Below, piece after piece: positions 48,193 through 57,964 of a stretch of 64,000 nucleotides of DNA (position 1 is the first letter of the stretch; each line of letters begins with the position of its first letter). Position numbers and translations under genes: made by a program. The notes below the pieces were generated by a model. It searched no databases. It was not told the origin of the DNA and saw nothing but the letters and a program-made list of their open reading frames with translations. Source of the DNA: an uncultured Gammaproteobacteria bacterium (GTDB lineage: Bacteria; Patescibacteriota; Patescibacteriia; Patescibacteriales; BS150m-G62); the NCBI GenBank assembly GCA_964569045.1, contig CAZMSR010000003.1, positions 23,492 through 87,491 of the forward strand, given 5' to 3'.

Positions 48193-50136
48193 TTATTTTT
48201 CCATTTTTTTGTATGTTTTTAAAAATTCAATAGTTTTTTTTCGTTCATCTAGGGCTAATTGTGAAGCATTTTGAGTTTTAAATAAAAAGTTATTAAATAA
48301 AGTGTAATCATTGATAATTTTAATTTTTTGAATATAGGTTTTGGCTTTTTCTGTGTGTGATATTGTTTTTTTACATATTTCTTCTATACAATCATACCAA
48401 AATATTTTTTGTAAATTATGTAAGTCTTTTTCTAAATTTATTTTGTTTTTTTTATATTTTTTTAGAATTTTTATTACAACATATGTTATTTGTCCATTTT
48501 TTAAATCTTTTTCCCAATCGTGTGCATCGTCATTTAATTGTCTGGCAATAATGTAGTGTTTAAAAAATAGTAATAAATGTTTTACTTCTTTTGAATCGGT
48601 TGAATACCCAAGAAGCATTAGTATTGCTATTGGTCCAATAGCATGTCCCATGGATTTTTGAGCTAATATAGACAAGTCTTTAAAATCAGGAAATATATAA
48701 TTTTTAGTATCTATTGTATTTTTTTTAATGGCTATTCTGCAATTGTTAATTTCCCACGAATTTGCTGAATCTATTTTACTTAGAATATCTTCAAAAAAGT
48801 TTTTAAAATCTGGGTTGTTTTGGCTAATATAGAGAATATTTTTATATACTTTTCGTGATAAAATATTTGCTATTGGTAATAGTTTCTCATCTCCTTCATA
48901 GTCTATAATGTTGTCATAAATTGTATAAGCTATCCAGCCTTGTAAGTTAATTTCTCCTAAGCAAATATTATGATTGATGTTTATCTGCTTATTTGCATTG
49001 TTAAGCATTTGAGTAAAAAAGTATGCAAGTAGTATTATTGGTTGCTCTTTGTCGGTTTTTAGGTTTTTTTCTAGGATTTGGTTAATTTCTTTTTGTGAGC
49101 TTTGGTCTAGTTTTTTAAATACTGTTTTTGTGTTTTTTATAACTTCATGTTTTATAAAATTTTTGTTTTCAGAGTTATTTATGTTTCTTTTTTGTTTGTT
49201 ATTTTTGTGTTTGGATAATGCTTCTAAGCAAAATGCCGTTGTTAAGGCCTTTGAACCCGCATGATACTTATTATTATCACCTTTTGGATTAATTCCTAAA
49301 TAAAAAGATTGTGCTGGCCATGCGCCATTCTTACAATTTTTTATTATATAATCAATGCTTTCTTCTTGATTGTTGTGGTGGTGAATATTGTTTAATGTGG
49401 TTAAACTTAGAGCAGTGAATAATGGGTTATTCCAATTGTTGTTTTTATTTTTTGCGTTATTTAAAAAGTCTGCTATATTTTTTTTATTTATGCCATTATA
49501 TGACCTTGATATAAAATAGATTATTGGAAATGGAGAAGTGTAGTATGGAGAAGTATAACTTTCTCTTGTTATTGCTTTATCTATAAAATTGTTTAATCCT
49601 TCAAGATTTACTTCGTGTAAAGATAAAAAGTATGCAATATTGCTGTTAACGGCTAAGTCTGTATCATGCCAAACTTTATCAGCTTCCGGATTAGTGATCC
49701 ATGATTTATAAGGTCCTCCTTCTTTTATTTCTAAATGAGTTAAAAGTGTTACAAATTTTGCCATCACATCGCCGTCAATTAGTTTGTTGTTATATTCATA
49801 AAGCGCAGATAAAGCGCAGCTTGTGTCATCTAAATCATCGGGATATGGCATTTTTAAATAATCTTTTGAGCGTCGATCCCAATAATTAAATGTCCAATGA
49901 TTGGTTTTTTGATTTAAAAGAAAGTAGGCAGCTTTGCGTTTTATTATTTTTATTTCAGGTGTTTCAGCTAATTTACATAGAGCTGATAATATTAAGGTTG
50001 TTGAAAATACAGATTCACATTTATATGCATTGTTAAAATTATTTTCATGGAGTGATGTGTAGCTTGGAAAGCTTCCGTTTCTTTCTTGTTCTGCTAATAG
50101 AAATTTAATTGATTTTTTAATAGTTTCTTTGATCAT
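48193..50136 (-). CDS. two-domain terpenoid-enzyme-like protein (alpha/alpha-toroid prenyltransferase/cyclase-like N-half with DxDDTS; polyprenyl-synthase-like C-half)
   Basis: N-half: NGSFPSY and PDDLDDTSCALSAL (class II cyclase DxDDTA-like). C-half: YDNIIDYEGD and QLNDDAHDWEKDLKNGQIT about 125 aa apart, resembling FARM/SARM spacing in trans-prenyl diphosphate synthases. Confidence 0.45.
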   Translation of the reverse strand: MIKETIKKSIKFLLAEQERNGSFPSYTSLHENNFNNAYKCESVFSTTLILSALCKLAETPEIKIIKRKAAYFLLNQKTNHWTFNYWDRRSKDYLKMPYPDDLDDTSCALSALYEYNNKLIDGDVMAKFVTLLTHLEIKEGGPYKSWITNPEADKVWHDTDLAVNSNIAYFLSLHEVNLEGLNNFIDKAITRESYTSPYYTSPFPIIYFISRSYNGINKKNIADFLNNAKNKNNNWNNPLFTALSLTTLNNIHHHNNQEESIDYIIKNCKNGAWPAQSFYLGINPKGDNNKYHAGSKALTTAFCLEALSKHKNNKQKRNINNSENKNFIKHEVIKNTKTVFKKLDQSSQKEINQILEKNLKTDKEQPIILLAYFFTQMLNNANKQININHNICLGEINLQGWIAYTIYDNIIDYEGDEKLLPIANILSRKVYKNILYISQNNPDFKNFFEDILSKIDSANSWEINNCRIAIKKNTIDTKNYIFPDFKDLSILAQKSMGHAIGPIAILMLLGYSTDSKEVKHLLLFFKHYIIARQLNDDAHDWEKDLKNGQITYVVIKILKKYKKNKINLEKDLHNLQKIFWYDCIEEICKKTISHTEKAKTYIQKIKIINDYTLFNNFLFKTQNASQLALDERKKTIEFLKTYKKMEK

Positions 50137-50169: not shown

Positions 50170-50892
50170 TTATTTAAGAGTTAAAATAAAATATTTTTCT
50201 TTGCCTGTCTTTATTGTGGTTGAATTATATCCACATGAGTCAAAATCTGTAAAAAAACCAAAGGAGAAAGTAAAGCCTAAGTTATTTTTAAGTATATTGT
50301 TAGCATTTAATCGTTTTTTCCCTATTGGTTTATCTGTATATGAGCCAATAAATATTTTTACACTTGTGGATATGCATTTTTTTAATGATATTAAGAGATT
50401 AATAGACGATTCTTTATCTATCATTCCCCAAAAATTATTCATAATAACATTTTTAATATGATCTAATTTTGTAAAATTAAAATTTTCGATTTTTTCCGGA
50501 AATAATTTGATATTTGTATAACTTTCTAGTCTGTATTTTGCTTCATTTAGCATTATTTTAGATCTGTCTATGCCATAAATAGGATTGTATCCTGCATCTG
50601 CACAGCGCATAAGCAGATCTCCTCGACCACACCCAATTTGAAGCACTGATCCTTCGTTGAAGTGTGGTTTTAGTATATCTAATAACCAAGAGTAATCTGC
50701 ATCCTGTAAACTGGCATGCTCTTCGTTAATAAAGTCATACACTTCTGCTCCAGTTTTGATTTTGCCTGAAAGAATATTCTTATAAGCTCCTTCTTCTTTG
50801 ATTTGCTCTAGGATTGATTTGGGGATGAAATTGAATATTTCATCTAATGCTTCTTCGTTTGTCATATGTTTTTTATTAAAAAACTCGGTCAC
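50170..50892 (-). CDS. class I SAM-dependent methyltransferase
   Basis: VLQIGCGRGDL motif I and acidic motif II. Confidence 0.75.
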   Translation of the reverse strand: MTEFFNKKHMTNEEALDEIFNFIPKSILEQIKEEGAYKNILSGKIKTGAEVYDFINEEHASLQDADYSWLLDILKPHFNEGSVLQIGCGRGDLLMRCADAGYNPIYGIDRSKIMLNEAKYRLESYTNIKLFPEKIENFNFTKLDHIKNVIMNNFWGMIDKESSINLLISLKKCISTSVKIFIGSYTDKPIGKKRLNANNILKNNLGFTFSFGFFTDFDSCGYNSTTIKTGKEKYFILTLK

Positions 50893-50926: not shown

Positions 50927-52324
50927 TTATTTATATGTGATTGGAATTACAAGTTTGACTATTGTGCCTTTTCCATATTCGCTTTTAATGTCAATTAAGC
51001 CTTTAAAATCTTTTTTAATAATTTTTTGCGTGGTATATAAGCCAAGACCCATTGTTTGTTTTGTTGTGAAAAATGGTTTAAAAATATTATTTATTACTCC
51101 TTTTTTTATTCCAGGGCCGGTGTCTTTTATTGTGATAATAATTTTTTTGTTTTTTTGAATTAATTCAATAAATATAGAGCAAGGTGTTTTATTATTTTTT
51201 GTTTTAGCACAAGCATCAGTAGCATTGCTTAATATATTAGTTAATACTTGGTTTAGTTTAAATTTATTGCCATATGTTATAATTTTTGTACTCGGCTTAT
51301 TGAAAAAAATTTTAGCTCTACTTTTTTTGGTTTTATAATCAAGTACTGATATGCAATCATCGATTTCGTCTATGACTGAGAAGTAAGTGTCAGTATTACT
51401 TTGTTTGATTTGTTTTTGAGCTGCATTTAAATATTTTTTTACATTTTCGAGATTATTATTTGCTTCGTCTACTGTTTTTTGTATATTAGGTGGTAATTTT
51501 ACGTTTTGCCTTTTGTCGGTTTTTAATTCTTCGATATTTAAATAAACTGTTTGTAAGTGATTTACTAAATCATGAAAAATACCTCCAGATAACTGGCCAA
51601 ATTCATAAAAATGATATAATTGTCCAATTCGTTTTTTTTGCTCTTTTGCTAAATCTTTTGTGCGTTTTTCTACTTTTTCCTCAAGTAAATCACGTTCTTT
51701 TTTAAGTGCTTTTTCTGATTTTCTTGCACGTTTTAATGATTTGTCGAGCTCTCTATTGTATAGCCAGGTTATTGATACTATAATCATTAAAGTGAATCCG
51801 GCAATTGATGCATCACCTAGATTTGTTGGGGTATTTTTCCATGTTGATATTGGGTTTAGAATATGTAATTGTTGTAAGTATGTTAATAGAATTAGTGAAG
51901 CAAAACATATGAGTGTAGTTATTATTGCGATTCTAGTACTAATTAATATAGCTGCCATTGTTATTATTAGTGCATACATTAGTCTTCCTGCTGGCATGTC
52001 AGCTCCCCATGAAATAAAAGAGGATAGTGTAATTAAAAATAAAAAACTTACTAAAATATATGATGAAAAAATAACTTTTTTCTTTTTTGTTAGGATAAAT
52101 AATGTTATGAAGAAAATTGTAATTGCTGTTAATATTAATGGATTGATTTGTTGCTCGGAATACTGTGCTGTATTTAACGTACTTAATATAACTCTTAAAG
52201 TTCCAACGGCTGATAATATTATTGAACCTAATAAAAGTATATATAATATGAATTCTTTACGAGCTAGATCTTCGTTAGTCGAGTTTGGCTGAATAAGTCT
52301 TTTTGTTAGTTTTAATAGTTTCAT
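50927..52324 (-). CDS. membrane sensor histidine kinase with 6-TM N-terminal domain and AgrC/ComD-like H-box
   Basis: Six predicted TM helices; H-box IFHDLVNHL; HATPase_c boxes (SNATDAC, DTGPGI, FKPFFTTK, GLGLYTTQKII). Confidence 0.8.
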   Translation of the reverse strand: MKLLKLTKRLIQPNSTNEDLARKEFILYILLLGSIILSAVGTLRVILSTLNTAQYSEQQINPLILTAITIFFITLFILTKKKKVIFSSYILVSFLFLITLSSFISWGADMPAGRLMYALIITMAAILISTRIAIITTLICFASLILLTYLQQLHILNPISTWKNTPTNLGDASIAGFTLMIIVSITWLYNRELDKSLKRARKSEKALKKERDLLEEKVEKRTKDLAKEQKKRIGQLYHFYEFGQLSGGIFHDLVNHLQTVYLNIEELKTDKRQNVKLPPNIQKTVDEANNNLENVKKYLNAAQKQIKQSNTDTYFSVIDEIDDCISVLDYKTKKSRAKIFFNKPSTKIITYGNKFKLNQVLTNILSNATDACAKTKNNKTPCSIFIELIQKNKKIIITIKDTGPGIKKGVINNIFKPFFTTKQTMGLGLYTTQKIIKKDFKGLIDIKSEYGKGTIVKLVIPITYK

Positions 52325-52337
52325 GTTAAATTATTCT

Positions 52338-52374
52338 AAAAACTAGCTGGATGATATTATGAACATCCAGCTAG
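52338..52374 (-). terminator. strong rho-independent terminator or attenuator between the peptide gene and the kinase gene
   Basis: Perfect 11-bp stem CTAGCTGGATG/CATCCAGCTAG with a 10-nt loop, followed by TTTTT on the minus strand. Confidence 0.6.
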
Positions 52375-52384
52375 ATGGGTGTAT

Positions 52385-52498
52385 TTATTCTCCTCCCCAA
52401 GGATTGCCACCACCAGCAACAGTAACAACAAATGCAGCTAGGCTTGCAGAATTTCTTCCAGCTTTAGTTGATAAAGCTTTTTCGATTAAATTTTTCAT
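52385..52498 (-). CDS. candidate 37-aa peptide (possible signalling or precursor peptide)
   Basis: MKNLIEKALSTKAGRNSASLAAFVVTVAGGGNPWGGE. Locally GC-rich coding stretch ending just before the terminator. The longer 120-aa version of this ORF looks like translated AT-rich spacer. Confidence 0.35.
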   Translation of the reverse strand: MKNLIEKALSTKAGRNSASLAAFVVTVAGGGNPWGGE

Positions 52499-52768
52499 TG
52501 TAATATTGTATTTTAGCAGAAAATATTCTTTTATTGAATCGCGCAATTTAACAAAAGAGTGATTTGCTAAAAAAATGTTTGTAAAAGTGCTCTTTCGACC
52601 TTTTTCAAAATTAATTATATTAATTTTAATAAAGAGCCTTATATGTTGATAATTATATATATAGACAGTTGAAATAAATTTAATAAAAAAATAAAATAAA
52701 AATAAAATCGAAATAAAAAAAAGAGCATTGCATTGCGCTTTGCTCAATTATAAAGAACGATTTTTTGT

Positions 52769-53698
52769 TTAATTTTTTTGTTGTACAGTAACTGTTACTT
52801 GATTGCCCAGTTGGTTATATTCAAGAGTATCAAAGCTTATTTTTTTGGCCATGGCAATGCCTCGTCCGTGTAAATGTGTTACTCGGAGTGGGTCAATTTC
52901 TAGATATTTTTGCCAGTTAAATCCATGACCATCATCTCTGATGGTAAAGACAAGATTATTGTTTGAGTCTTCATGGTAGTGAACTATCACTAATTTTTTT
53001 CTGTATTCTGCTTTTTTAAGACGTCTTTTGATTTCCTCTTCCCACATACCTTCGCTTATTAGCATTGTTTTTTCTTCGTAGGTAATGCCTAAGTTACCAT
53101 GCTCCACGGCATTTATTAATAGCTCTAGAAAACCAACGCCTACAGAGCCTGGGTTATGGCAAAGAGCTGCAAGTATTTTGGCTAAATTATGAGTTTCTTC
53201 AAGGCTTCTTATAGTAAATCTTTTGGTAGGTGGTTTTTTATCTCTATTTGAAGATATTTGTTGTAGTGTGAGATAGTTATTACGGTCTATTAATGCAGTT
53301 TTTATTAATGCAAGTAGCGTTTCTCTTTTAAATGGTTTTGTTAAATAGAAATAGGCTCCAGCATTAATCCCTTTTTGAATTTCTCTTGGGTTAGCGCGCG
53401 CTGTTTGCATTATAATTTGATTTGAATGAAGTCTATTTGAATGTTGAATTTTTTCAAGTATCTCAAGACCACTCATTTTTGGCATCATCCAGTCAAGTAA
53501 TACGAGGTCATAATTTGTATCTGCTTTTAGTATCTTATTCCAAGCTTCTTCTCCGTTAGTTGCTGTCTCAACTTGATATTCGGTTTCATCCAAGAATTCT
53601 TTTATGATCATAAGCATGTAAGGTTCGTCGTCGACTGCAAGAATTCTTGGTTGTTTTTTTGGTTTATCAGATAAGATTGGAATTTGTGAGTTAAGCAT
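52769..53698 (-). CDS. response-regulator receiver fused to a GHKL ATPase (RsbW/SpoIIAB-like serine-kinase domain)
   Basis: REC motifs (ILAVDDEP...LVLLDWMMPKMSG); C-terminal ELLINAVEHG, IRDDGHGF and HGRGIAMAKKI boxes. The ORF extends to 53773; the start is placed at MLNSQIP to avoid an 83-nt overlap. Confidence 0.7.
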   Translation of the reverse strand: MLNSQIPILSDKPKKQPRILAVDDEPYMLMIIKEFLDETEYQVETATNGEEAWNKILKADTNYDLVLLDWMMPKMSGLEILEKIQHSNRLHSNQIIMQTARANPREIQKGINAGAYFYLTKPFKRETLLALIKTALIDRNNYLTLQQISSNRDKKPPTKRFTIRSLEETHNLAKILAALCHNPGSVGVGFLELLINAVEHGNLGITYEEKTMLISEGMWEEEIKRRLKKAEYRKKLVIVHYHEDSNNNLVFTIRDDGHGFNWQKYLEIDPLRVTHLHGRGIAMAKKISFDTLEYNQLGNQVTVTVQQKN

Positions 53699-54863
53699 GG
53701 TTTTCTCCACTTTTAAGCTCCTGGTAGGATTTTTTAATATCATGGATTTGAGGTAGAATTCTGAAAAAAGCATTAACTAACTCAGGGTCGAATTGTTCGC
53801 CTCTTTCTTTTTTTATAAGGTCAAGTGCTTGCTCTTCTTTCCATGCAGATTTATAAGGTCTTTTTGAGGTTAGGGCATCATAAACATCGGCGACTGCAAC
53901 TATTCGACCCGGAAGTGGTATATTTTTGCCTTTTAATCCATTTGGGTATCCATTACCATTCCATTTTTCATGGTGAGTTAGAGCTATGATTCGACCCATT
54001 TCAACTAATTTTGAAGTTGGATTAGCAAGTATTTTGGCACCAATAATTGTGTGTGCATTCATTATTTGACGTTCTTCTGCAGTAAATTTACCTGGCTTAA
54101 GTAAGATGTCATCTCTAATTCCGACTTTTCCGATATCATGCATGGGGGCTGCATAAATATAAGCATCTGCCTGGTAGTTGCTTAGATTGATTGCTAAAGC
54201 CAATTGTTTAGAATACTGACTAACCCGCTTAACATGCATTCCGGTTTCATCGTCACGTATTTCTCCTGTCATACCAAGTCTATGCATTAAATCAATTTGA
54301 GTGGCAAGAATTAATTTGTGTTGTTTTTGACTTTTTTCATATTGATTCTTTAGTCGTATCTTTTGGTCTTTTAGTCTTATTGTACTTTCTTGTAATAATT
54401 GGTTAAGGTTTGAATTTTGTTGCTTTAGTTCTATTTGAGTTAAGTGCAGTTCAAGCAGATTTTTTACCCGTAATAAAAGCTCTTGTCGCTTAAAGGGCTT
54501 AATGAGAAAGTCTCTGACTAAAGAGGTTTTTAGAGCTTTATTGCGTGTGTTTTCATCATTTTTTGCTGATAGGATTATGATCGGTCCATGATGTGATTTA
54601 TCTTGAATCGCTTTAAGTAAGTCAAAACCATTCAAGATAGGCATTACAATATCTAAGAGAATTAAATCAAAGGTTTCTCGAGTTAAAAGGTTTAGTCCTG
54701 TAACTGGTATTGTTGTGGATTGCACGTTTGTGTAGCCCTCCATTTCGAGAAATTCTCGCAAAATTACATTATTTTGCTCTTCATCGTCAATGATGAGAAT
54801 CCTTGCATTCATTGCTGTTTTAGGTTGTATCATTATTTTATTCCTTTGATTGTTTGTCCTCAT
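53691..54863 (-). CDS. response regulator with HD-GYP phosphodiesterase output domain
   Basis: REC domain, then HDIGKVGI and HHEKWNGNGYP motifs. Confidence 0.85.
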   Translation of the reverse strand: MRTNNQRNKIMIQPKTAMNARILIIDDEEQNNVILREFLEMEGYTNVQSTTIPVTGLNLLTRETFDLILLDIVMPILNGFDLLKAIQDKSHHGPIIILSAKNDENTRNKALKTSLVRDFLIKPFKRQELLLRVKNLLELHLTQIELKQQNSNLNQLLQESTIRLKDQKIRLKNQYEKSQKQHKLILATQIDLMHRLGMTGEIRDDETGMHVKRVSQYSKQLALAINLSNYQADAYIYAAPMHDIGKVGIRDDILLKPGKFTAEERQIMNAHTIIGAKILANPTSKLVEMGRIIALTHHEKWNGNGYPNGLKGKNIPLPGRIVAVADVYDALTSKRPYKSAWKEEQALDLIKKERGEQFDPELVNAFFRILPQIHDIKKSYQELKSGENHA

Positions 54864-55003
54864 TTTTAAAAACGTAAATGCAGCGAATTGGTTTTTTCTT
54901 GAAACGAGCTTGCTATTTAACCTAATTTTCTAAGTGGCTAAAGAGAATATGCTTTGAATGTTGCTGTTATCGTCAATAATTAAAATTGTCTTTGTTTTTT
55001 TGT

Positions 55004-56155
55004 CTATTTTGTGTTTTCTTTTTCATTGCAAATTGGGAGGGTGATCTCAAAGCTGGCGCCGACTTTGCTGTTATTTTTACAAGTTATATTGCCATTATGA
55101 GCTAGTATAATTTCTTTGCATATTGCTAGTCCGAGTCCTGTGCCTCCGGTCTTTTGGTTGTTATTATGACTTTGAGTGAATTTATTGAATATATTTTTTA
55201 GCTCTGTCTCCGGAATTCCACAGCCTTGGTCTCTGATTATAATTCTAAATGAGTTATTTTTATCTTTTGAGATAATTATTTTTATTAGCCCACCTTGGTT
55301 AGAAAATTTTATGGCATTGCTCAAGATATTCTGAATTACACGTAATATTTTAATTTTGTCAGCGGTTATTTGAAGATGTTGCTCTTTGGATTCAAAATGT
55401 AAGTGTAATTTTTTTTCTTTAATTAATAGTTTTACTGAATCTAATTCTTTGTTTATAGCGCTTATTAGATCAAAATTTTCTTTATTGAGATCCACTAACC
55501 CTGATTCAAGTTTAGCTAAATCAAGTAAGTCATTTATTAAGGATAATTGCTTTGCTTGACTTTCTTGAATTCCTTCTAAAAATAATGTTATTTTGTCCAA
55601 GTCTTCTTTGATTTCACTTGAAGTTGCCAGAGAATTGATTGAGGTTAGTTCTGTAAGACGTTTTGCTTTTATTTTGGCAAGATAAGCTAAATTCTTAATT
55701 ATGTGCAAAGGTGTTCTAAGATCATGGCTTATATTGGAAAGGAATTCGGTTTTAGCACGATTTGCATTTTCTGCTGCTTGTTTTGCCTCTATCAAACCTT
55801 TTTCAAAAGTTTTTCTAACCGTTAAGTCGCGGATAACACCAATAAATAGCTCTTTCCCAAGAAAATTAAATTCGCAAAGATTTAATTCTAGGTAAAAAGT
55901 GGAACCATTTTTATGTAGTCCAAACATTTCTTTTTCATATTCGTTTTTAGAGAAATAGTCTTGAATACCTTTAAAATGAAATGAAGTAGGAATAATGGTT
56001 TTTAAATTACATCCCATTAATTCATATGAACTGTAGCCAAACATTTTTTTTGTAGCAGGATTTGCAAAAACTATCTCACCATATGTGTTTATGGCAAGTA
56101 CCCCATCATTTGTATTGTTTGCGTTTTTTGTTGTTGAATGCGCGTAATGGTCCAT
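55004..56155 (-). CDS. cytoplasmic PAS-domain sensor histidine kinase
   Basis: PAS (GEIVFANPATKKMFGYSSYEL), H-box NISHDLRTPL, HATPase_c (DQGCGIP, GGTGLGLAICKEII). Confidence 0.85.
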   Translation of the reverse strand: MDHYAHSTTKNANNTNDGVLAINTYGEIVFANPATKKMFGYSSYELMGCNLKTIIPTSFHFKGIQDYFSKNEYEKEMFGLHKNGSTFYLELNLCEFNFLGKELFIGVIRDLTVRKTFEKGLIEAKQAAENANRAKTEFLSNISHDLRTPLHIIKNLAYLAKIKAKRLTELTSINSLATSSEIKEDLDKITLFLEGIQESQAKQLSLINDLLDLAKLESGLVDLNKENFDLISAINKELDSVKLLIKEKKLHLHFESKEQHLQITADKIKILRVIQNILSNAIKFSNQGGLIKIIISKDKNNSFRIIIRDQGCGIPETELKNIFNKFTQSHNNNQKTGGTGLGLAICKEIILAHNGNITCKNNSKVGASFEITLPICNEKENTK

Positions 56156-56344
56156 TGCTTTTCCTCTATGTTATTAATTTTTAATGATCATGGCACAAGT
56201 TTGAGCCTAAGTAATTTATGCATTATTCCTGATGAAAATTATTTAATAAAAAAATGACAAATTTATGACATTTTTTTGCTAATATTGCAATTTTTATTTT
56301 AATATGTTAATTTGAAAAATTATTTATTATTAAATTATAGATAA

Positions 56345-57013
56345 ATGAAAATTTTATTAATAGAGGATGATGCAAAATTGGCAAAAGAATTGAAAAAAAA
56401 ATTGGAGCATGATTTTTTTGTTGTTGATATTGCTGATAATGGAGAGCGTGGATCTTTTTTGGCAAGAACTAGTAGTTATGATTTAATAATACTAGATAAT
56501 ATTTTGCCAAAAAAAGAAGGCAAGGATGTTCTTCATGAGATACGAGATGATAAAAAAAATACATTAATTTTAGTATTAAGCATTAAATTTGAGCCTGGTT
56601 TAAAAACAGAGTTGTTAAATGCCGGAGCAGATGATTATATGCAAAAACCTTATTCTTATCAGGAATTAAAGGCACGAATTAATGCACTTCTAAGAAGAGC
56701 GACGCAAATAAATAATGTTGTTATGAAAATTGGCGCTTTAGAAATAGATACAGGATCTTATAGTGTAAAATATTTAAATAAAAATATTACACTCACTCGT
56801 AAAGAATTTTTATTTTTAGAGTATTTGGGAAGAAATAAAAATAGGGTGGTAAGCAGAGGGGGAATTATAGAGAATGTGTGGGATGTGAATGCAGATTTAT
56901 TTTCCAATGCTATAGAAGCCACTGTTTTAAGGCTTAGAAAAAAATTCAAAAAAATAACAAAAGTTAATATTATTGAAACTATTAATGGTGTGGGGTATAG
57001 AATTAAATGTTAA
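56345..57013 (+). CDS. OmpR-family response regulator
   Basis: REC plus winged-helix Trans_reg_C (LTRKEFLFLEYL...GVGYRI). Confidence 0.9.
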   Translation: MKILLIEDDAKLAKELKKKLEHDFFVVDIADNGERGSFLARTSSYDLIILDNILPKKEGKDVLHEIRDDKKNTLILVLSIKFEPGLKTELLNAGADDYMQKPYSYQELKARINALLRRATQINNVVMKIGALEIDTGSYSVKYLNKNITLTRKEFLFLEYLGRNKNRVVSRGGIIENVWDVNADLFSNAIEATVLRLRKKFKKITKVNIIETINGVGYRIKC

Positions 57014-57017
57014 ATAA

Positions 57018-57290
57018 ATGGAATTGATTAAATTTATTAAAATTAAAAAAATTGTACGAAGTGAAATTGACAAATATATAAATGAAAATAAGCATTTATT
57101 GTCAACTGATGATGCTTATAATATTAATTGTGGTTTAAAGCCTAGGATTGTTGTTAATTCTATAGCTAAGGCGTGCCGCGAATGCAAAAAAGGAGGTTAT
57201 GTAAAACATGAAAATACAAATGATTGTTATTTGAGGATATTTGAGTATGGTACAAAATATGCTACAAAATATTTGTCTAAACTAAAATAG
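57018..57290 (+). CDS. hypothetical small protein
   Basis: 90 aa with a CRECKKGGY motif. Confidence 0.35.
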   Translation: MELIKFIKIKKIVRSEIDKYINENKHLLSTDDAYNINCGLKPRIVVNSIAKACRECKKGGYVKHENTNDCYLRIFEYGTKYATKYLSKLK

Positions 57291-57292
57291 TA

Positions 57293-57964
57293 TTATTTTT
57301 CGTTTATTATGTAACCTCTGCCAGGAACTGTAATAATAATTTTTGTGTTTGTAATTTTTTTGAATTTTTTTCTAAGATTTAAGATGTGGCTTTCAATTGT
57401 ATTTGAAAAAGCATCAGCATTGATATCCCATACTTTTTCCATTAACTCAGCTCTTGATATTATATTTCCTCTATTCTCAGCTAAGTATTTTAATATTAAA
57501 AATTCTTTGCGTCTTAAATATACATCATTATTATTGTACCTTACTTGATTTTTATTGGTATTTATTACAAGCATATTAATATTAATTATGTTTGATTTTA
57601 TTGTAGGTTTTCTTCTTAGTAGTGCTTTTATTCTTGCTTTTAATTCTTGATATGAATAGGGCTTTACTAAATAATCGTCAACACCAGAATTAAATAAATC
57701 AACTTTATCATTAATGTCAAATTTTATTGTAAGCATTATTATTGGAGTATCTATATTTTCATTTCTGATTTCGGTACAAATTTTTTTCCCATTTTTTTCA
57801 GGTAGCACATAGTCGAGGATTATTAGGTCATAGTTATTGGTGCGAGCCCAGAAAGATCCTTTTGTTCCATTTTTTGTCCAATCAACTACATAACAATCTT
57901 GCTCTAAATATTTTTTTAACAAAAAGCCTGTTTTTTGATCATCTTCAATTAAGAGTATTTTCAT
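57293..57964 (-). CDS. OmpR-family response regulator
   Basis: REC plus Trans_reg_C (LRRKEFLILKYL...GRGYII). Confidence 0.9.
   Translation of the reverse strand: MKILLIEDDQKTGFLLKKYLEQDCYVVDWTKNGTKGSFWARTNNYDLIILDYVLPEKNGKKICTEIRNENIDTPIIMLTIKFDINDKVDLFNSGVDDYLVKPYSYQELKARIKALLRRKPTIKSNIININMLVINTNKNQVRYNNNDVYLRRKEFLILKYLAENRGNIISRAELMEKVWDINADAFSNTIESHILNLRKKFKKITNTKIIITVPGRGYIINEK

Follow-up and report, generated by a model that had tools for sequence, protein, structure and literature searches.

The 64,000-nt stretch of contig CAZMSR010000003.1 analysed here (the window; G+C ~30%) carries on its minus strand a gene for a 647-aa enzyme (48193..50136) in which, judging from profile and structure-model comparisons, a single-domain class II terpene cyclase is fused to a domain with the trans-isoprenyl diphosphate synthase (trans-IDS) fold. 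With a confidence slightly better than even, the enzyme is predicted to be a bifunctional maturase of a ribosomal peptide, encoded in a cassette of response regulator, precursor peptide, membrane histidine kinase and enzyme. The maturase reading is preferred because this cassette ties the enzyme to a Trp-bearing peptide and to a histidine kinase.

The enzyme gene and its family

The open reading frame (ORF) starts with an ATG on the minus strand and has the extent originally predicted for it. Its AlphaFold2 (AF2) model has a mean predicted local distance difference test (pLDDT) score of 90.1, and both halves gave Foldseek matches. With the sub-coordinates translated, the three motifs named in the original prediction were located where they had been placed, YPDDLDDT at 49822-49845, DNIIDYEGD at 48889-48915 and QLNDDAHDWEKD at 48505-48540. 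The neighbours that it had named, an S-adenosylmethionine (SAM) methyltransferase (50170-50892), a kinase (50927-52324) and a small peptide ORF, are also real.

At least 541 full-length homologues of the enzyme (40-67% identity) were found. The family amounts to 2,025 clusters at 50% identity (E<=1e-3), 1,054 of them at E<=1e-30, and at least 258 species genomes match it. Conservation of single residues was counted in 105 non-identical members whose identities range from 31 to 100%. The key residues P99, D101, D103, D104, T105, Y199, D408, D412, Q533, D536, D537, D540 and D544 are kept in 100-105 of these. In the N-terminal half the counts are 105/105 for P99 and Y199, 104/105 for D101 and D103, 103/105 for T105 and 100/105 for D104, and in the C-terminal half D408, D412, Q533, D536, D540 and D544 are each present in all 105. 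The Asp-rich motifs are not chance runs of Asp, nor a compositional accident, because they are near-invariant over a large and divergent family.

Database entries currently label the enzyme 'hypothetical' or 'terpene cyclase/mutase family'. Separately, PF28380.1 is listed for the family members P0014, P0018 and P0025-P0029, and a newer Pfam release may define a family over part of the enzyme.

The cassette occurs in Microgenomates, Parcubacteria, Saccharibacteria, Doudnabacteria and CPR2, and the enzyme family looks restricted to Patescibacteria (candidate phyla radiation, CPR), because the labels from other phyla are probably mis-assigned. Many records of metagenome-assembled genomes with the cassette are assigned to 'uncultured Gammaproteobacteria', Vitreimonas, Sulfotelmatobacter or Methylomirabilota (e.g. 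L009, L015, L021, L025, L048, L055 and L061), with loci of 36-43% G+C. These same loci have CPR-type neighbours, and mislabelling or mis-binning of third-party annotation (TPA) assemblies is the likely cause. A tblastn search of plasmids and phages gave a single match, a Nostoc tetratricopeptide repeat protein with a segment similar to the class II cyclase (TCβ) domain, and none in phages. The Nostoc gene lies on plasmid pC052_D of Nostoc sp. C052 (NZ_CP040276.1, 60107-63763; L086) and encodes a 1,218-aa 'tetratricopeptide repeat protein', part of which shares 27% identity with the cyclase domain (E=3e-10). Around it are glycosyltransferase, sulfotransferase and ABC-transporter genes, a context unlike that of the cassette.

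A conserved cassette of peptide, kinase and enzyme genes

The first clue to the cassette came from three unrelated contigs in which a gene for a multi-transmembrane HATPase_c protein lies directly upstream of the enzyme gene on the same strand, in one case overlapping it by 4 nt. In every locus looked at initially, a small ORF of like architecture stands right before the kinase gene. A further 80 loci were drawn from the 258 matching species genomes and scored by phmmer and an iterated hidden Markov model (HMM) of the peptide. Linkage was counted over the 72 loci in which 2.2 kb or more of upstream sequence was available. A kinase is encoded directly upstream of the enzyme on the same strand in 69 of the 72 loci, with gaps of 8-300 nt, and two more have a divergent kinase gene next to the enzyme gene. 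The peptide ORF lies directly upstream of the kinase gene in 65/72, or in 67 when divergent arrangements are included. In loci L069 and L079 the peptide-kinase pair adjoins the enzyme gene and is transcribed divergently from it, so that the linkage survives inversion. Other apparent exceptions are a masked stretch in L078 and a contig end in L006. At least 45 loci have, on the same strand and immediately before the peptide gene, a gene for a response regulator receiver (REC) domain protein. The cassette probably serves an important function, because its tightly linked parts were retained across many CPR lineages.

A canonical polyprenyl diphosphate synthase is encoded in the operon in 16-18 of the 83 loci (~20%), either before the peptide gene or right after the enzyme gene. 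In the window, a class I SAM methyltransferase (50170..50892, minus strand; Pfam Methyltransf_25/31/23) is encoded between kinase and enzyme. The original prediction had drawn attention to the co-orientation of the enzyme gene with this methyltransferase and with a peptide/kinase module. The peptide/kinase module turned out to be conserved and is the key clue to function. The methyltransferase is not a conserved part: only 3/83 loci encode it, the window and L006, its closest relative, between kinase and enzyme, and L053 at another place in the locus. It is possibly a lineage-specific accessory that performs a tailoring step on the lipopeptide. A weak, sub-threshold NCBIfam similarity to methyltransferases of peptides that are made on ribosomes and modified after translation (RiPPs; daptide-type, E=0.0016) was also recorded for 50170-50892.

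The putative precursor peptide gene

The candidate precursor gene of the window (52385..52498, minus strand) encodes 37 aa, MKNLIEKALSTKAGRNSASLAAFVVTVAGGGNPWGGE, and 65/72 loci have a homologous ORF of 34-40 aa at the same place. Among the 66 unique peptides, lengths run from 34 to 57 aa (median 37), and the leader MxxLIKKxLTDKxxRN is common to them. A single Trp is present in 64 of the 66; it always lies 1-6 residues from the C-terminus and is preceded by Pro in 56/66. Mean pairwise identity is 38% in the leader, equal to that of the enzyme, and 20% in the eight residues before the Trp. A conserved amphipathic leader with a single Trp at a fixed distance from the C-terminus is, as far as these sequences indicate, how a leader-core precursor is built. 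Between leader and Trp, some lineages have a hydrophobic stretch; in 23/66 sequences it is polar, so that it is not a conserved membrane helix.

Between the peptide and kinase genes lies a terminator- or attenuator-like hairpin (52338..52374, minus strand) with a perfect 11-bp stem, a 10-nt loop and a UUUUU run. Its minimum free energy is -17.8 kcal/mol (z=-4.8), and 0/200 shuffled sequences fold as well. A crude search found a similar hairpin followed by a U-run in ~31 of 69 loci. By analogy, a hairpin after the peptide gene would match the usual layout of precursor genes.

The public gene calls for 52385-52747 (minus strand) and for loci L087-L089 give either a 120-aa hypothetical protein, through an upstream TTG extension, or a 67-aa antisense ORF, and the conserved product of the region comprises the last 37 codons only. 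The peptide family is invisible in protein databases because these calls mis-assign the precursor region.

The peptide need not be a substrate. The small ORF could instead encode a micro-protein that modulates the kinase, with the enzyme making a non-peptide isoprenoid or lipid signal, such as a prenylated and cyclised free Trp or another small acceptor. Ord1, which farnesylates free Trp, is among the Foldseek matches of the enzyme, and a kinase sensor that is purely membrane-embedded would suit a lipophilic ligand. In many lineages the small protein has a hydrophobic middle, and two lineages (L004/L005 and L023) have kinase and enzyme with no detected peptide. This explanation is nevertheless unlikely, given that the middle is polar in 23/66 sequences, that the conserved parts are the leader and the Trp, as in leader-core precursors, and that the gene is followed by a terminator-like hairpin, as precursor genes are.

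The N-terminal class II cyclase domain

Single-sequence searches of the enzyme (Pfam, NCBIfam and phmmer against the PDB) gave sub-threshold matches to TED_complement and SQHop_cyclase_C only, and none in the PDB. A profile built from 36 homologues was needed to see the relatives of the N-terminal half. Over residues 14-311 this profile matches the C-terminal cyclase domain of the bacterial drimenol synthase AsDMS (9mhs, 9m7d) at E=5e-11. AsDMS is also the best Foldseek match that the AF2 model gives for the N-terminal half (E=2e-10, 325 columns, root-mean-square deviation 3.7, identity 20-22%). The next matches are the 345-aa monodomain 'squalene-hopene cyclases' 8pak and 8paj (E~1e-8, target-normalized TM-score (TMt) 0.64-0.67), followed by a Streptomyces drimenyl-diphosphate synthase, squalene-hopene cyclase (SHC) and oxidosqualene cyclase (OSC). 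On the strength of profile and Foldseek matches, residues 1-318 (49183..50136, minus strand) are assigned the single-domain class II cyclase (TCβ) fold, which agrees with the α/α-toroid class II cyclase first proposed for this half. A Lys/Asn-rich inter-domain linker of variable length follows (residues ~319-344; 49105..49182, minus strand), marked by the gap-rich columns 350-375 of the family alignment and by a pLDDT of ~70 at residues 311-320. A reading as a thioester domain (TED) of the α2-macroglobulin type was rejected, since there is no thioester motif, the match spans 80 residues only, and both profile and fold point to terpene cyclases.

The motif YPDDLDDT (49822..49845, minus strand), a DxDD(T) general-acid motif, aligns residue by residue with FPDDLDTT of AsDMS. 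The DxDD-like motif of the original prediction, PDDLDDT, is therefore at the aligned catalytic position of the AsDMS DxDTT motif. D101 and D103 pair with D331 and D333 of AsDMS, the latter being Asn in the inactive D333N crystal form 9m7d, and Y199 (49540..49542, minus strand), kept in 105/105 members, aligns with Y427, which hydrogen-bonds the catalytic Asp. AsDMS cannot do without D331, D333 and Y427, and the proton for the terminal double bond comes from D333, which Y427 holds (PMC12365925). The sequence thus indicates that the class II catalytic machinery is present and conserved in the N-terminal domain, and cyclisation activity is predicted.

The diphosphate in AsDMS is held by R378, whose mutation costs 96% of the activity, and by R380, R425 and Y373 (PMC12365925). 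In the family these ligands are exchanged, R378 for W156 (104/105), R380 for D158 (102/105), R425 for P197 (91/105) and Y373 for a variable position. Since the diphosphate-binding residues of AsDMS are replaced, the cyclase substrate is unlikely to carry a diphosphate, and binding of a prenyl diphosphate by the cyclase domain appears unlikely. The partner domain differs as well. AsDMS has a HAD phosphatase partner, and no such partner was found in the enzyme, in which the second domain has the trans-IDS fold.

A further reading is that the N-terminal barrel is not a cyclase in this setting. It might bind the prenyl group or the peptide, or act as a chaperone of the lipidated product, with Trp prenylation still carried out by the C-terminal domain. 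The inter-domain geometry of the model is only moderately confident, with a predicted TM-score (pTM) of 0.72 when the whole protein is modelled and 0.89 when the C-terminal domain is modelled by itself, and the substrate-binding residues differ from those of AsDMS. A non-catalytic barrel is nonetheless quite unlikely; conservation of D101, D103 and Y199 in at least 104/105 members over such deep divergence is hard to explain without catalysis, and the equivalent mutations abolish the activity of AsDMS (PMC12365925).

The C-terminal prenyltransferase-like domain

The C-terminal half (residues ~345-647; 48196..49104, minus strand) was modelled on its own with a pLDDT of 92.5 and a pTM of 0.89, as compared with a pTM of 0.72 for the whole protein. 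The top 50 Foldseek matches in the PDB are all trans-IDS, among them HexPPS (3aqb), GGPPS, FPPS, OPPS and solanesyl-diphosphate synthase, with TM-scores of 0.6-0.7, and the Trp farnesyltransferase Ord1 appears at rank 49. Two Asp-rich motifs were found where the fold would require them. The motif DNIIDYEGD (48889..48915, minus strand; family consensus DDFLDxEGD, with D408 and D412 in 105/105) resembles the first Asp-rich motif (FARM) and stands at the C-terminal end of helix 387-411 of the AF2 model. Position 409 is Asn in the window protein (DNIID), and the canonical DDxxD is present in 90/105 relatives. The motif QLNDDAHDWEKD (48505..48540, minus strand), in which Q533, D536, D537, H539, D540 and D544 are each kept in at least 102/105, resembles the second Asp-rich motif (SARM); as RQLNDDAHDWExDL it lies inside helix 516-546. 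The trans-isoprenyl diphosphate synthase originally proposed for this half is borne out by these two motifs, which lie on the FARM and SARM helices. The two halves have two terpenoid folds, and the Asp-rich motifs are at the predicted active-site positions.

The resemblance to known synthases is faint at the level of sequence. Pfam polyprenyl_synt (PF00348) does not match the window protein and matches 1/36 family members at E=0.03, and NCBIfam gave no match. Searched against PDB sequences, the C-terminal profile returned spurious Mdm2/p14 matches and an octaprenyl-diphosphate synthase at E=0.59. An hhalign comparison with 12 canonical synthases encoded in related operons was not significant (E=0.013, probability 3%). 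These 12 synthases have invariant GKxxR, RR (after the FARM), KT and GK...K motifs, and no counterpart of GKxxR, RR, KT or GK was found among the conserved columns of the C-terminal domain. The same weak hhalign alignment pairs ARQLNDDAHD...DLKNGQIT with AFQIxDD...DIxEGKxT, and an 11-residue deletion takes out the invariant GK. Because the FARM and SARM are kept and the motifs that bind isopentenyl diphosphate (IPP) are absent, the domain is probably a transferase to an acceptor other than IPP. It is predicted to bind and ionise an allylic diphosphate without condensing it with IPP.

A chain-elongating synthase that feeds the fused cyclase, as in fusicoccadiene synthase fusions, would account for the fact that the best structural matches are elongating synthases and that both FARM and SARM are intact. 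It is very unlikely, however, as GKxxR, RR, KT and GK...K of canonical synthases lack counterparts and polyprenyl_synt matches 1/36 members at E=0.03. A separate canonical synthase, present in ~20% of operons, would also be redundant, and the cyclase domain has no diphosphate site to receive the product.

Two other assignments were tried and rejected. A squalene/phytoene synthase had been considered on account of the motif spacing QLxxxxxDxxxDxxxG, and neither SQS nor PSY is among the 50 best Foldseek matches. A UbiA-type prenyltransferase (NCBIfam PRK13592, E=0.002-0.008, far under the 443-bit cutoff) does not agree with a soluble domain of trans-IDS fold.

The original prediction had combined the two halves into a class II plus class I terpene synthase. 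Such an enzyme would make a free cyclic terpenoid, for instance a membrane lipid or a volatile, and the peptide and kinase would be unrelated to it or would regulate it. Both terpenoid folds are indeed present with conserved catalytic motifs, some operons hold a prenyl diphosphate synthase, and the Pfam families Terpene_synth_C and Terpene_syn_C_2 gave sub-threshold matches, each to one family member. The structural evidence does not support this proposal. No class I terpene cyclase and no squalene synthase is among the top 50 Foldseek matches of the C-terminal domain, the sole class I cyclase match anywhere being abietadiene synthase, with a TM-score of 0.26 in the whole-protein search. The NSE/DTE motif, (N/D)Dxx(S/T)xxxE, was not found either, since QLNDDAHDWEKD has no S/T or E in register and is of the DDxxD SARM type instead. 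Without class I cyclase matches or an NSE/DTE motif, the combined synthase probably does not hold. The free terpenoid is further weakened by the cyclase domain, which lacks the diphosphate-binding Args of AsDMS, its closest characterised relative, and by a gene locked to a Trp peptide and a kinase. Class II products such as drimenyl diphosphate have lost their allylic character, and their later ionisation by a class I domain is chemically unfavourable, which makes a free terpenoid chemically awkward. A free terpenoid would also leave unexplained why nearly all loci link the enzyme to a peptide with its invariant Trp, even after rearrangement. A free-terpenoid synthase is accordingly regarded as improbable.

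The histidine kinase and response regulator

The kinase of the window (50927..52324, minus strand; 465 aa; Pfam HATPase_c 2.8e-18) consists of a multi-transmembrane N-terminus of ~200 aa, a coiled coil, the H-box FHDLVNHL and the HATPase_c domain. Directly upstream of the peptide gene is the response-regulator gene (52769..53773, minus strand; Pfam Response_reg 3.9e-28), whose product combines REC and HATPase_c_2 domains. The usual regulator of the relatives is an OmpR-type protein with REC and winged-helix domains, of which nine examples have ~222 aa.

Among kinase orthologues of 63 loci, mean identity is 34% in the sensor domain and 35% in the catalytic core. Pherotypes of the Bacillus kind, in which peptide core and kinase sensor would diversify together, were considered and found no support, the correlations being weak (Spearman 0.16) and the sensor no more variable than the core. 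The kinase may recognise the conserved Trp-terpene moiety rather than the peptide sequence, as is suggested by a sensor as conserved as the core while the peptide core is highly variable.

Two-component genes are unusually dense for a small genome in the region 50927-57964 of the window. The block includes the cassette kinase gene, the REC-HATPase_c_2 gene (52769-53773), a REC-HD(-GYP-like) gene (53691-54863) and a PAS-HisKA kinase gene (55004-56155), and OmpR-type regulators are encoded a few kb from the cassette at 56345-57013 (plus strand) and 57293-57964 (minus strand). GC skew is positive in nearly all 2-kb bins of the window (1-64000), and the cumulative skew climbs monotonically, with no origin or terminus apparent.

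The proposed maturation pathway

In the pathway proposed for the maturase, the C-terminal domain would bind an allylic prenyl diphosphate (C15-C20) through Mg2+ at the FARM-like DDxxD motif and ionise this donor, which in ~20% of operons could be supplied by the in-operon canonical synthase. The invariant Trp close to the precursor's C-terminus would then receive the prenyl group, in the manner of ComQ, PalQ and the ChrPC P domain, with the leader MxxLIKKxLTDKxxRN as the likely recognition element for the enzyme. In a second step the N-terminal monodomain cyclase would use D103 of its DxDD motif, held by Y199, to protonate the distal double bond of the peptide-bound chain and so cyclise it. 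The C domain of ChrPC and NctPC, and MstE, provide the model for such cyclisation of a bound prenyl chain. Transfer first and cyclisation second is an order consistent with the missing diphosphate site of the cyclase domain. The resulting lipopeptide, perhaps freed of its leader, exported and, in the lineage of the window, methylated, would be the probable signal for the co-encoded kinase and OmpR-type regulator, as in ComQXPA.

Several observations weigh against this reading. Fold, motif conservation and linkage were computed directly, and the catalytic and signalling steps are all inferred from them. No significant sequence similarity was seen between the C-terminal domain and ComQ, any family of NCBIfam or Pfam, or any sequence in the PDB, and its link to Trp prenyltransferases rests on modelled fold, motifs and context. 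Q533, which precedes the SARM in 105/105 members, does not discriminate, as the same Gln is invariant in canonical synthases too. The kinase sensor is not hypervariable, unlike the pherotype pattern of Bacillus. The cassette has no conserved exporter or leader peptidase; genes for an ABC transporter were seen in 8 loci only, and apart from these and the methyltransferase no further gene recurs. A motif scan of the 64-kb window found no gene of the methylerythritol phosphate (MEP) or mevalonate (MVA) pathway and no UppS or IPPS gene, a result uninformative for the whole genome. Finally, the loci L004/L005 and L023 have kinase and enzyme, and no peptide ORF was detected in them by the HMM; this could reflect loss, divergence or relocation of the precursor gene. 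The L004/L005 enzyme is 51% identical to that of the window and lies in a syntenic region (MurJ, MurA). In L004 the kinase has a shorter N-terminus (388 aa), and the genes before it encode a REC-only protein of 80 aa and a large CHASE-PAS hybrid kinase.

Significance

Patescibacteria make up a large share of bacterial diversity and are mostly host-attached organisms with reduced genomes and little lipid or secondary metabolism. To our knowledge, the sensing of partners or of one another by these bacteria is essentially unexplored. The present data raise the possibility, to which somewhat less than an even chance is given, of a hitherto undescribed lipopeptide signalling throughout the phylum, in which a peptide of 34-40 aa, prenylated on its single Trp, has its chain cyclised to a polycyclic terpene by a fused enzyme and is sensed by a dedicated kinase and OmpR-type regulator. 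If this is true, ultra-small episymbiotic bacteria would have their first assigned signalling chemistry, whether between cells or between symbiont and host, and a cyclised terpene on a peptide would for the first time serve signalling and not secondary metabolism. Natural-product enzymology would also gain a sizeable and varied set of compact prenyltransferase-cyclase maturases that act on very short substrates, useful for peptide lipidation. There is a gain for annotation as well, as the enzyme is now entered as 'hypothetical' or 'terpene cyclase/mutase family' and the precursor gene is missed or mis-called. The maturase hypothesis is directly testable.

Comparison with known systems

In fold and motifs the enzyme matches both the monodomain class II cyclases and the trans-IDS-like transferases, and it falls outside the drimenyl-diphosphate synthases, the chain-elongating synthases and the class I cyclases. 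The maturases ChrPC and NctPC, which come closest in design, were reportedly described by Hubrich et al. (Chem, 2024). No description of the cassette in CPR was found in the searchable literature, though the survey in Hubrich et al. 2024 may list it.

The closest solved relatives of the N-terminal domain, AsDMS (HAD-TCβ; 9mhs, 9m7d), MstE, 8pak and 8paj, share the DxD(D/T)T motif and its Tyr partner. AsDMS, however, uses free farnesyl diphosphate (FPP) held by Args that are absent from the window enzyme, and its partner is a HAD phosphatase. The C-terminal domain has the same fold as the canonical trans-IDS (FPPS, GGPPS, HexPPS and OPPS), with the FARM and the FQ/RQ-xx-DDxxD SARM in the same positions. 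It differs from them in having no IPP-binding motifs, an 11-residue deletion after the SARM and no PF00348 match.

The trans-IDS-like peptide prenyltransferases characterised so far all target Trp, and they have a conserved Gln directly before the SARM (PMC13290415). According to the same review, ChrPC of Chryseobacterium and NctPC of Nostoc are fusions of a transferase with a monodomain, MstE-like class II cyclase, which cyclises the prenyl chain while it is bound to the peptide, and the trans-IDS-like P domain of ChrPC prenylates an internal Trp (PMC13290415). By that description, the likeness to the window enzyme lies in a Trp transferase and an MstE-like class II cyclase in one polypeptide and in the same proposed order of steps. 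The window enzyme has its cyclase at the N-terminus and its transferase at the C-terminus, whereas the name 'PC' hints at the opposite order, which is unconfirmed; the fusion may have arisen independently of ChrPC, with the domains in opposite order. Unlike the substrates of ChrPC and NctPC, the window precursor is very short and has its own type of leader. The cassette, moreover, is hard-wired to a kinase and a regulator, which suggests signalling rather than secondary metabolism, and the family is apparently confined to Patescibacteria.

Both ComQ/ComX/ComP and PalQ/PalX/PalP are kinase-linked cassettes (PMC10853753). The ComQXPA system of Bacillus has the same four roles as the cassette described here, namely a transferase of trans-IDS fold, a short precursor with a Trp near its C-terminus, a multi-transmembrane kinase and a regulator, and the prenylation of an internal Trp known in Bacillus is what is proposed for the window cassette. 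The gene order is A-X-P-Q in Patescibacteria and Q-X-P-A in Bacillus. ComA is a NarL-type regulator, in contrast to the OmpR-type regulator of the cassette, and the sensor domain of the cassette kinase is not hypervariable. Pfam and NCBIfam searches detected no sequence similarity to ComQ. The window family keeps the SARM, whereas ComQ has no true SARM (PMC10853753) and no cyclase domain.

The PalQ/PalX/PalP system of Paenibacillus alvei is also similar by its description, being kinase-linked, with a Trp transferase of the trans-IDS superfamily and a precursor that ends in Trp (PMC10853753). For PalQ the Trp must be strictly C-terminal, and the leader of PalX is of the NHLP type (PMC10853753). 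In the window family, by contrast, the Trp always has 1-6 residues after it and the leader is unrelated, and PalQ has no cyclase domain. By analogy with these systems, the enzyme is judged a little more apt than not to work like a ChrPC-type maturase inside a ComQXPA-type cassette.

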